A program made the position numbers. This document shows, piece by piece, positions 15,001 through 18,000 of a DNA stretch of 57,395 bases. Within the stretch, counting starts at the first letter, position 1. Each line of letters opens with the position of its first letter. Origin of the DNA: a virus (lineage: Duplodnaviria > Heunggongvirae > Uroviricota > Caudoviricetes); IMG/VR virus record IMGVR_UViG_2718217787_000009; one strand, 5' to 3'.

Positions 15001-18000
15001 AGAGCGCAAGGTGCTGGAAGAGATTGCCGGTGTTCTGGGTCTTCGTCTGGAGAATCACCTGTGACGGTAAAACTGCGCCTGACTGTGGCTGCACTCCTGC
15101 TGTTTCTGGTGGTGATGGTGGATTTCACCAGCAGAATCATGTCGGTGCTGGCGGATGGGGTGCTGGTCTGCGGCATTGTGGTATTGCTGTGGCCGGTGAT
15201 AAAAAGAAACAGCCTGCATAATGCTTGATTTTTTTGTTTGCTGTTTATTAAAAACACTTCTGCATGGTGAATCCCCCTGTGCGGAGGGGCGATCAGCAAG
15301 AAGGTATATGGGATAATCGCGGATTCAGGTGCTGGTACTGAATTCACCGGGAGGCACCCGGCACCATGCTTTGCCACAAAAGTGTTATTTCTGTTTTTCT
15401 CAAACTATCATCGTTATCCCTTTATTTCCGGCTGCGCATGGCGCGGCCTTTTTTTTACGACCAGCCACTGGCAGATGGTCATCCTGTGATTTGATTCCGG
15501 TTCCGGCTTTTTAACTCTGTTCCTGTACACGGGAGAAATTCGATGTCGATTAAACATTATGATGTTGTCAGGGCGGCGTCGCCGTCAGACCTTGCGGAAA
15601 AGCTGACACACAAACTGAAAGAGGGCTGGCAGCCGTTTGGTAGTCCGGTGGCCATAACCCCTTATACCCTGATGCAGGCGATTACAGCAGAAGGTGATGT
15701 GGTGGTCAGTGGTGCAACTGAGCCGGATTGGTACTACGTCATCGTACTGGCCGGGCAGTCCAATGCCATGGCTTACGGTGAAGGGCTTCCGCTGCCGGAT
15801 TCATACGATGCTCCGGATCCGCGCATTAAACAGCTGGCGCGCCGCAGTACAGTGACGCCGGGTGGGGCTGCCTGCAGATATAACGATATTATTCCGGCCG
15901 ACCACTGCCTGCATGATGTGCAGGATATGAGTACGCTGAATCATCCGAAGGCAGACCTGAGCAAAGGGCAGTACGGCTGTGTCGGCCAGGGGTTACATAT
16001 TGCCAAAAAACTGCTCCCGTATATCCCGAATAACGCGGGGATCCTGCTGGTACCATGCTGTCGTGGTGGTTCGGCATTTACCCAGGGCGCGGAGGGGACA
16101 TTCAGCGAGTCCACGGGGGCCAGCCAGGATTCGGCACGCTGGGGGGGGGGCAAGCCGTTATATCAGGATCTGATTTCCCGCACAAAAGCGGCATTGCAGA
16201 AAAATCCCAAAAACGTTCTGCTGGCCGTCTGCTGGATGCAGGGAGAGTTTGACATGAGCGCCGCCACCCACGCACAGCAACCTGCGCTGTTTACAGCCAT
16301 GCTGGCACAGTTTCGTGCTGACCTCTCCGTGTTTAACGCGCAGTGCCATGGTGGCAGTGCTGCAGATGTGCCGTGGATTTGTGGTGACACGACGTATTAC
16401 TGGAAAAATACATACGCTACCCAGTACGACACCGTGTACGGCGGGTATAAAAACAGGGAGAGTGAGGGCGTTTATTTTGTGCCCTTCATGACAGACGGTA
16501 ACGGCGTCAATACCGCCACTAACGCGCCGGCAGAAGATCCGGATATTCCGGCATCAGGATATTACGGTGCGGCATCGAGAACGAATGGAAACCAGGTATC
16601 ATCAAACCGCCCGACACATTTCAGTTCATGGGCGCGCAGGAGCATTATTCCGGATCGTCTGGCAACCGCTATTCTGAACGCAGCCGGGCGCACCTCAGCC
16701 TTCATCAGTGGTAAGGCACCGGAAATCAAACCCTCGCCCGGCGGCAACACGCCATCGGGTCCGTCTGCAGATACGTCCGTTCGCACAATCTCCCTGCTGC
16801 CGGCAGCCGGAGAGGCTGCTGCGCAGGGCTGGAGCATTAAGGATGGCGGAATTCAGTTGTCAGATGGTGTATTTAAGATCACCAGGCAGAGCAATAAAAC
16901 CTGGTCCCTGACGCATCCGGTGGATGACGCAATTACCCTGCTGACACAGGGCGGCAGACTGACCTGTAAGTTCCGCCTGTCAGGCGCGCTGACCAACAAT
17001 CAGTTCGGGCTGGGGATTTATCTGTATACGGATGCTCCCGTTCCTGATGGTGTGGCGATGACGGGTACCGGTAATCCGTTCCTGATGTCGTACTTTACTC
17101 AGACCACTGACGGCAGAGTGAATCTGATGCATCACAGGAAAGCCGGAAACACGAAGCTGGGGGAGTTCGGCGATTACGGTAACGACTGGCAGACGCTGGA
17201 GCTGGTGTTCACCGCCGGCAGTGCCACGGTTACTCCGAAACTGAATGGAGTGGCTGGCCCGGCATTCCAGGTTATAAAAGACAGTCTGACACTGGGACTG
17301 AATGCGCTGACGCTGACGGATGTTACAAAAAATGCAGCGTATGGCGTTGAGATAGAAAGTCTGGTGCTGGAGATAAATGCACCGGCAGCATAATAAAAAA
17401 AGAGCCAGCGACTGACCTGAAAGAAGACGCTGGCTAAAAGGCCTTATATGTTTGTAGAGACTTATTTTTCACAGACAGCAATGATGCCTGTCAATATATT
17501 ATCAATATGCGGATTGTTTCAGTTACAGATGCTTTATTAAGGAAAAAAACAGCCAGCACTGACTTTCGGTGGAGAGGTGCTGGCTCAGAAGGATAGTTGG
17601 ATTTCACATGATACTTATGCCTGGCGGTATATTTTCTGACAGACAGTGACGGGTGTTGTCAAGATATTGTGTCATTTATAACCTGAATCAGGGGGTGGCC
17701 GGAATGTTATCTGGCATTTTTAGCAGAGCCTGAATGCCATAATCACGGCTCCCGGCGTTGGCCGTCAGTGGGTGACACTGGCGGCTTTTTTGTTTTTCTT
17801 TACTTTCATTTTCTGTCGGCGGTGACGGAGACATACATCAGATGGAAAAAATCACAACAGGTGTGTCATACACCACGTCAGCGGTGGGGACGGGATACTG
17901 GTTACTGCAGCTGCTGGACAAAGTCTCTCCGTCCCAGTGGGTGGCGATAGGCGTGCTGGGGAGTCTGCTGTTTGGGCTGCTGACATATCTGACGAACCTG

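Follow-up and report, generated by a model that had tools for sequence, protein, structure and literature searches.

Does an uninterrupted run of ten G in a prophage esterase gene constitute a reversible genetic switch, or is it a mutational accident in one member of a redundant gene family? This question is raised by the virus record IMGVR_UViG_2718217787_000009 of IMG/VR (Duplodnaviria; Heunggongvirae; Uroviricota; Caudoviricetes), the 57,395 nucleotides (nt) of which constitute the window analysed here. The run lies inside nanS-p, a gene encoding a prophage sialate O-acetylesterase of 616 amino acids (aa), and an earlier note made from the sequence had suggested that slippage within the run might turn this late-expressed protein ON and OFF. 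Judged by sequence comparison, the run is a derived and rare allele of a known nanS-p gene, made by one T>G change. We further hold, with a rough probability of 0.65, that it represents a slippage-prone homopolymer, newly made by a single-nucleotide polymorphism (SNP), which sporadically inactivates one copy of a redundant family and is not a selected reversible switch.

Origin of the G10 tract by a single substitution

The ten consecutive G occupy positions 16141-16150 of the + strand and are flanked by T16140 and C16151, as read directly from the sequence. In the frame of the nanS-p open reading frame (ORF) the codons TGG GGG GGG GGC encode W200 G201 G202 G203, which bears out the description in the earlier note of ten G encoding WGGG within a 616-aa esterase. 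A first-order Markov model of the window gives an expectation of about 0.12 G runs of 10 nt or more, versus two that are present, namely this one and an intergenic G11 run at 14539-14549. As Escherichia coli K-12 is reported to have a single 10-nt mononucleotide run, along with 19 runs of 9 nt (bioRxiv 10.1101/346874), a G10 run is unusual for the species. Being a homopolymer of at least about 8 nt within an ORF, the length of which sets the reading frame, the tract has the form expected of a phase-variable locus.

To place the tract in its family context, the window can be compared with its nearest relatives. Over 25 kb it matches CP043539.1, the genome of E. coli O157:H7 strain Al Ain, with 100% identity, positions 16101-16190 of the window corresponding to 324,982-325,071 of that genome, and it is the counterpart of the Sp12-type lambdoid prophage of strain Sakai. 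The closest relatives (Sakai Sp12, EDL933 and phage 434) carry GGGGGGTGGG at this point, which encodes W-G-V-G; the aligned sequence of Sakai Sp12 (ECs_2262), phage 434 and strain 7784 is TGGGGGGTGGGC, likewise encoding W-G-V-G. Position 16147 is the sole difference in the tract from these three; a T>G substitution at this position, converting GTG to GGG (V202G), joined G6 and G3 into G10. More distant alleles carry GGGGTGTGGG or GGGGAGTGGG. Down to 57% identity every homologue has V, T or I as residue 202, with T or I found in NanS and in homologues at 57-64% identity. Since the other alleles and the homologues have V, T or I at residue 202, the T at 16147 is ancestral, with Gly replacing a conserved beta-branched residue.

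The interrupted form is also by far the commoner one. Exact 90-mers (89-mers and 91-mers for G9 and G11) were counted over 5,426 complete E. coli genomes, and with Sp12-type flanks G6TG3 was present in 211 records and G10 in 3 (strains 3384, 106 and Al Ain). Among the proteins of a very large collection, the W-G-V-G form was encoded on 295 contigs versus 5 for the W-G-G-G form of the window. A variable-gap pattern scan of IMG/VR returned 61 matches, all of 10 nt, of which 59 had the interrupted G6TG3 and 2 the pure G10. The repeat is thus not conserved across orthologues, and a scan of genome contigs recovered 7 loci, none with a G run. As evidence against its own proposal the earlier note had named an interrupted run in closely related genes combined with an absence of length variation; the close genes do have the interrupted G6-T-G3 form, and length variants do exist, in a sister allele considered below.

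Could the G at 16147 instead be an artefact of assembly, with Al Ain in truth having the common GGGGGGTGGG and T16147 having been miscalled as G within a G-rich stretch? The Al Ain genome is a PacBio RS II-only HGAP3 assembly with no short-read polishing (PMC6856277), and hence the base at 16147 is without short-read confirmation. The four contigs that were read for the exact protein of the window are all complete chromosomes of more than 1 Mb, and the length of the neighboring G11 run varies between near-identical assemblies (by 1 bp between strains 3384 and 106), which could reflect miscalled homopolymers. Against this, a G at 16147 would be a substitution, whereas PacBio consensus errors are mostly indels and not length-neutral substitutions. 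Strain 3384, strain 106 and CP145946 have the same base, about 211 other complete genomes, many of them probably long-read too, call T, and a 434-like G10 is present on 129 contigs that include Logan and ENA assemblies, showing that such a sequence does occur naturally. Of the two readings, an assembly error is hence the less likely one, and we regard it as improbable.

Occurrence of the substitution on different backgrounds

MB41-1 is the nearest relative of Al Ain, and over 25 kb the two differ at six positions, which comprise 16147, a cluster of three SNPs in the lysozyme gene and the length of the upstream G run. A G at 16147 is also carried by strain 3384, the background of which is Sakai-like, with another portal block and with shared SNPs (21926 and 25357). 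Al Ain and strain 3384 thus lie on different prophage backgrounds, and the nearest relative of each has T at 16147. Further, the 434-like allele family, which is marked by T at 16124, occurs in both forms: T at 16147 in phage 434 itself, and G in loci L030 and L031 and in 38 complete genomes. As all four combinations of 16124 (C/T) and 16147 (T/G) are found, there must have been either recurrent mutation or recombination within 23 bp. These sequences therefore place the T>G change in at least two allele backgrounds, whether it arose independently or was transferred by recombination.

Mutation-accumulation lines of E. coli have substitution hot spots at the bases next to runs, the more strongly so with increasing run length, and the changes are often templated by the run via transient misalignment (bioRxiv 10.1101/346874). 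Gene conversion from a paralogue may alternatively have been the source of the G; as C16124 keeps the Sp12-type state, this would need a patch of less than 23 bp.

Length variation of pure and interrupted tracts

The 434-like sister allele is represented in RefSeq complete genomes by 38 records with G10, 7 with G9 and 0 with G11. The six G9 genes that were fetched are all annotated as 'frameshifted' and come from three prophage contexts: a prophage adjacent to lpxR (strains 2013C-3277, 06_3044, 2011C_3361 and AUSMDU00014361), an Sp12-like prophage (2015C-4136CT1) and a third context in AUSMDU00002545. Strain 06_3044 (G9) is a single G apart from 12690 (G10) in 8,090 bp, and the G9 of 2013C-3277 is present in two separate assemblies. 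The clonal group with the lpxR-adjacent prophage has G10 members too, among them 12690, 06_3288 and 07_3337.

The products of the sister allele were also looked up exactly as predicted proteins, and the DNA was checked afterwards. The full-length G10 product was found on 129 contigs, as two alleles on 102 and 27 contigs. The G9 product was found on 7 contigs (3 complete genomes, 3 NCBI drafts and 1 Logan contig seen in 10 samples), the G11 product on 4 (one from ENA, two from Logan and one NCBI draft), the G12 product on a single contig (DEC10F) and the G8 product on none. Frameshifted products were encoded by 12 of 146 contigs with pure-G tracts versus 10 of 865 with interrupted tracts (odds ratio 7.7, Fisher p = 1e-5), a contrast that is rough in that the contigs are non-independent, the denominators are the looked-up alleles and some long-read assemblies are noisy. 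The indel rate of E. coli is reported to climb exponentially with run length (PMC8510543). In a published survey of nanS-p diversity (PMC10462455) the words frameshift, truncation, homopolymer and pseudogene are absent.

The intergenic G11 run offers an internal comparison. It is preceded by tRNA-Arg(tct) at a distance of 80 nt and followed, 86 nt further on, by the ATG of the TerB-like gene at 14636. Among near-identical O157 Sp12-type prophages its counterpart is G9 in MB41-1, CP145946 and EC1212, G10 in L100, G11 in Al Ain and strain 9000, G12 in 3384 and G13 in strain 106 and Sakai; the homologous run in 434-like loci is G6 or G7. These differences could be either real hypervariability or homopolymer miscalls, and this variability points in the same direction as the poly-G instability of the nanS-p tract. 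The genome lengths of strains 3384 and 106 differ by exactly 1 bp.

Domain architecture of the esterase and the position of truncation

The 616-aa protein has the three-domain NanS-p architecture, with DUF1737, SGNH/SASA and C-terminal lectin-like domains (Table 1). Three Pfam families are detected, all above cut-offs: PF08410 (DUF1737) at aa 4-50, PF03629 (SASA) at aa 66-262 and PF20350 (DUF6645) at aa 467-577. The structure of the chromosomal NanS (PDB 3PT5) aligns to aa 59-379 with E = 1e-122, and that of the NanS-p C-terminal domain (PDB 6YP6) to aa 421-613 with E = 2e-29. In RefSeq the gene is named 'SASA family carbohydrate esterase'. The SGNH blocks correspond to those tabulated for 3PT5, which lie at 17-21, 120-125 and 178-183, with SHFS reaching up to 303 (PMC10792757). 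Esterase activity, for which the substrates of this family are Neu5,9Ac2 and the O-acetyl sialic acids of mucin, is reported for the NanS-p enzymes of EDL933 and O104:H4 (PMC8065619). By these matches the gene is a known NanS-p-type esterase in the late region of a prophage that does not encode Shiga toxin (Stx), as the earlier note had recognized in calling it a nanS-p esterase.

Table 1. Coordinates of the nanS-p gene, its domains and motifs, the G tracts and the associated features in the window
Feature	Position (nt)	Strand	Residues or product	Basis or remark
G11 run, intergenic	14539..14549	+		between tRNA-Arg(tct) and TerB-like gene
nanS-p ORF, prophage sialate O-acetylesterase	15543..17393	+	616 aa	ORF, Pfam, PDB matches
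DUF1737 N-terminal domain	15552..15692	+	aa 4-50	Pfam; sole Pfam domain intact after tract frameshift
SGNH/SASA catalytic domain	15717..16679	+	aa 59-379	3PT5 alignment and motif positions
Block I, GQSNA	15759-15761 (Ser73 nucleophile)	+	aa 71-75	motif position
Block II, RGGSAF		+	aa 174-179	motif position
G10 homopolymer	16141..16150	+	last two bases of W200 codon, codons G201 and G202, first two bases of G203	
T>G substitution, GTG>GGG	16147	+	V202G	alignment; joins G6 and G3 into G10
Stop after -1 nt (G9) or +2 nt slip	16171..16173	+	209 aa (G9)	simulated
Stop after +1 nt (G11) or -2 nt slip	16250..16252	+	236 aa (G11)	simulated
Block III, MQGEFD		+	aa 232-237	motif position
Block V, THFS	16617-16619 (His359)	+	aa 358-361	motif position
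C-terminal lectin-like (jelly-roll) domain, DUF6645	16803..17381	+	aa 421-613	6YP6 match, PF20350
Holin ORF	17842-18048			window ORF call

The residues encoded by the tract, aa 200-203, fall within the catalytic domain, between SGNH blocks II and III. Simulated slips of -1 and +1 nt terminate the protein shortly downstream (Table 1). The stop frame of the simulated G9 is also that found in the natural G9 genes of the sister allele, and the natural G11 genes of that allele yield a product of 234 aa. Both the G9 and the G11 products keep DUF1737 and blocks I-II, and both are without block III, the catalytic His359 and the lectin-like domain. Hence the earlier note was right in predicting that a slip of one nucleotide truncates the protein and wrong in placing the truncation after the SGNH domain, as it falls inside that domain and removes His359.

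A different reading of these alternative frames would be that G GGG GGG is a slippery site for programmed ribosomal frameshifting or transcriptional slippage, yielding a second functional protein. An all-G heptamer would indeed permit perfect re-pairing of tRNA-Gly in the -1 frame. Both alternative frames, however, stop after 7 to 33 codons (with ends at 16173 and 16252) and encode no domain, the fold of 16151-16240 provides no downstream stimulatory structure (z = -0.61), and the slippery motif is absent from most alleles. A recoding site was rejected on account of the short alternative frames and the lack of downstream structure, and we consider it extremely improbable.

Slippage in a redundant gene versus a selected switch

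The events that we favor as an explanation can be set out as follows. A T>G change at 16147, which probably came about by transient misalignment at the G6 run, a known mechanism of substitution hot spots in E. coli, removed the T that interrupted the ancestral GGGGGGTGGG (Val202>Gly). The uninterrupted run would then be prone to replication slippage, with slips of -1, +1 or +2 nt giving rise to frameshifted null alleles that retain DUF1737 and SGNH blocks I-II and lose block III, His359 and the lectin-like domain. The predicted outcome is the occasional loss of one copy in a redundant nanS-p family. We infer that slippage in vivo is the source of the length variants and that no switching is under selection.

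The redundancy of the family is suggested by the tract region itself, which matches about six places in the Al Ain genome; these we read as nanS-p copies. This strain presumably has the chromosomal nanS as well. Seven to ten active NanS-p esterases have been reported in EDL933 (PMC8065619).

Several observations weigh against this explanation. The allele of the window, which was seen on only 5 contigs, yielded 0 G9 and 0 G11 among the exact 89- and 91-mers of the 5,426 complete genomes, and exact look-up of its predicted G8, G9 and G12 products returned none. Some G9 calls in the sister allele stem from long-read assemblies that have indels in further homopolymers, such as AUSMDU00014361 with six indels in 8 kb, and AUSMDU00002545 (G9) also has a lysozyme frameshift; sequencing error could therefore account for some of the length variation. 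Frameshifts occur in the interrupted tract as well, with the G5TG3 product found on 8 + 1 contigs and the G7TG3 product on 1. The 8 contigs belong to the 434-like background. The other two products came from the look-ups of the window allele and belong to its interrupted form: G7TG3 in an EC1212 draft (L099, AERQ01000028.1) and G5TG3 in L100 (JBDIFL010000001.1), the latter of which is probably sequencing noise because L100 has several other homopolymer indels. Many unrelated strains moreover have the pure-G allele in intact form (38 records; 129 contigs), and it is therefore not quickly lost. Selection for switching is possible on these data.

The foremost competing explanation is true phase variation, in which G10 would be a reversible ON/OFF switch of a late, possibly capsid-associated esterase, kept by selection, with the switching of the esterase and lectin domains being of help to the prophage or the lysogen. 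In keeping with this, both contraction (G9) and expansion (G11 and G12) are natural and occur in several prophage contexts, some 8-15% of the carriers of the pure tract are OFF, and the pure-G allele is widespread and mostly intact. The truncated product would in addition keep DUF1737, the domain reported to bind capsids in gp84 of phi24B, so that OFF variants could still decorate capsids. The tract is, however, absent from most alleles, the T interruption being both the majority and the ancestral state. V202G is a non-conservative change at a position that is otherwise V, T or I, as would be expected of a mutational accident rather than of a designed repeat. With about six paralogous copies, the switching of one should not alter the esterase phenotype, and no reversion is documented. 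Finally, E. coli has active mismatch repair and is not known for repeat-based contingency loci. We accordingly think it unlikely that the tract is maintained as a switch.

In a more far-reaching version, the run-adjacent T>G change would have repeatedly made G10, which would now act as a true reversible G9/G10/G11/G12 switch of the esterase and lectin part of a protein that may be a capsid decoration. A repeat-based contingency locus would then have been caught as it is being born, in a species (E. coli) that is believed to have none, and we view this as improbable. The sporadic inactivation of one redundant copy by slippage thus remains our preferred explanation. Of the ON/OFF switch put forward in the earlier note, truncation and instability are upheld, the latter in the sister allele (pure-G tracts of 9, 11 and 12 in public assemblies) and not in the window's own allele (no G9 or G11, for an allele seen on only 5 contigs). 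The switch itself finds no such support and is in part contradicted by the interrupted tract of close relatives.

Prophage context

Near-identical relatives carry, in this order, Q, three tRNAs, the genes for a TerB-like and a DUF3927 protein, nanS-p, a class II holin, a YdfR family protein and lysozyme. This order puts nanS-p in the late region between Q and the lysis genes, as is seen in the NanS-p family. Genes of this family are induced along with late phage genes (PMC8065619; PMC10462455). Terminator-like hairpins with T tracts bracket nanS-p at 15430-15456 and 17760-17796, the first of which matches a terminator annotated in phage 434 just before the esterase gene of that phage. From these bracketing hairpins, the expression of nanS-p would probably rely on Q-mediated read-through. 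Upstream, the gene at 14209-14284 is called tRNA-Met (anticodon CAT) by ARAGORN and tRNA-Ile in RefSeq (ileZ-type, presumably Ile after lysidine modification); it is part of the usual Ile-Arg-Arg tRNA cluster downstream of Q.

Several genes of the prophage have signs of disruption. At about 7207, in the ORF 6819-7235, the window is without a C that is found in strain 9000, 3384 and Sakai, and this deletion is common to MB41-1, in which the YdaT-family gene at this point is annotated 'frameshifted'. The portal gene (26163-28664), which lies in a divergent block starting from about 26094, is annotated 'frameshifted' in MB41-1 and 9000, and its ORF in the window has 833 aa versus 859 aa in Sakai. 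A DUF1627 gene is likewise annotated as frameshifted in relatives. From its sequence the prophage is probably defective, which weakens arguments drawn from virion biology. The phi24B homologue gp84 is reported to be a processed capsid-decoration protein that is bound via DUF1737 (bioRxiv 10.64898/2026.04.10.717836). By analogy a truncated product might still bind capsids, a notion that is speculative here as this phage has a different head type.

The lysozyme gene (18448-18981) has SNPs at 18620, 18735 and 18762, within 143 bp of each other, which are private to Al Ain in a comparison against MB41-1, strain 9000, 3384, 106, CP145946 and Sakai. The change at 18620 is G>T and breaks a G run (CCCGGGTGG). 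This cluster looks like a short gene-conversion patch from a paralogous lysozyme gene of prophage origin.

Significance and comparison with known systems

The NanS-p esterases let enterohaemorrhagic E. coli (EHEC) use the O-acetylated sialic acids of mucin, and one homologue has lately been reported on a phage capsid. Knowledge of the enzyme and of the prophage is unchanged by the G10 run, and, as one of the six or so copies in a genome, this gene is unlikely to have a phenotypic effect by itself. A slippage-prone G10 would nevertheless explain why a fraction of nanS-p copies is annotated as frameshifted pseudogenes, and it calls for caution in typing schemes and in functional counts of nanS-p copies. 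More generally, the locus would be a natural example of a two-step route in which a run-adjacent substitution makes a long homopolymer that then decays by slippage.

Among known systems, the closest are the NanS-p genes of EHEC, such as z1466 of 933W, vb_24B_21/gp84 of phi24B and ECs_2262 of Sakai Sp12, which encode the same three domains and occupy the same place between the Q antiterminator/tRNAs and the holin. From ECs_2262 the gene of the window is one nucleotide and one amino acid apart (V202G; GGGGGGTGGG to an uninterrupted G10). In contrast to Stx phages, this prophage has the TerB-like and DUF3927 genes where stxAB sits. The chromosomal NanS (YjhS, 3PT5) shares the SGNH core with its four blocks GQSNA, RGGSAF, MQGEFD and xHFS, but is without the DUF1737 and lectin-like domains and has W-G-T-D at the position of the tract, with no G run.

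In its form the tract resembles the phase-variable homopolymer genes of Neisseria, Haemophilus, Campylobacter, Bordetella and Mycobacterium, such as pgtA with its poly-G and glpK, which likewise have an intragenic poly-G of about 9-12 nt with natural length variants that truncate the product, the variants here being those of the sister allele, some of them perhaps sequencing errors. Unlike in those genes, the nanS-p tract is a recent SNP product, present in a minority of alleles, non-conserved, and located in a prophage gene that is redundant, in a species proficient in mismatch repair. In its origin it is closer to the dislocation mutagenesis hot spots of E. coli: the T between G6 and G3 is likewise run-adjacent, changes to the base of the run, and is found so changed in at least two backgrounds. 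In the present case dislocation is suggested by the sequence context and the homoplasy, with very short-patch gene conversion between paralogues as an alternative.

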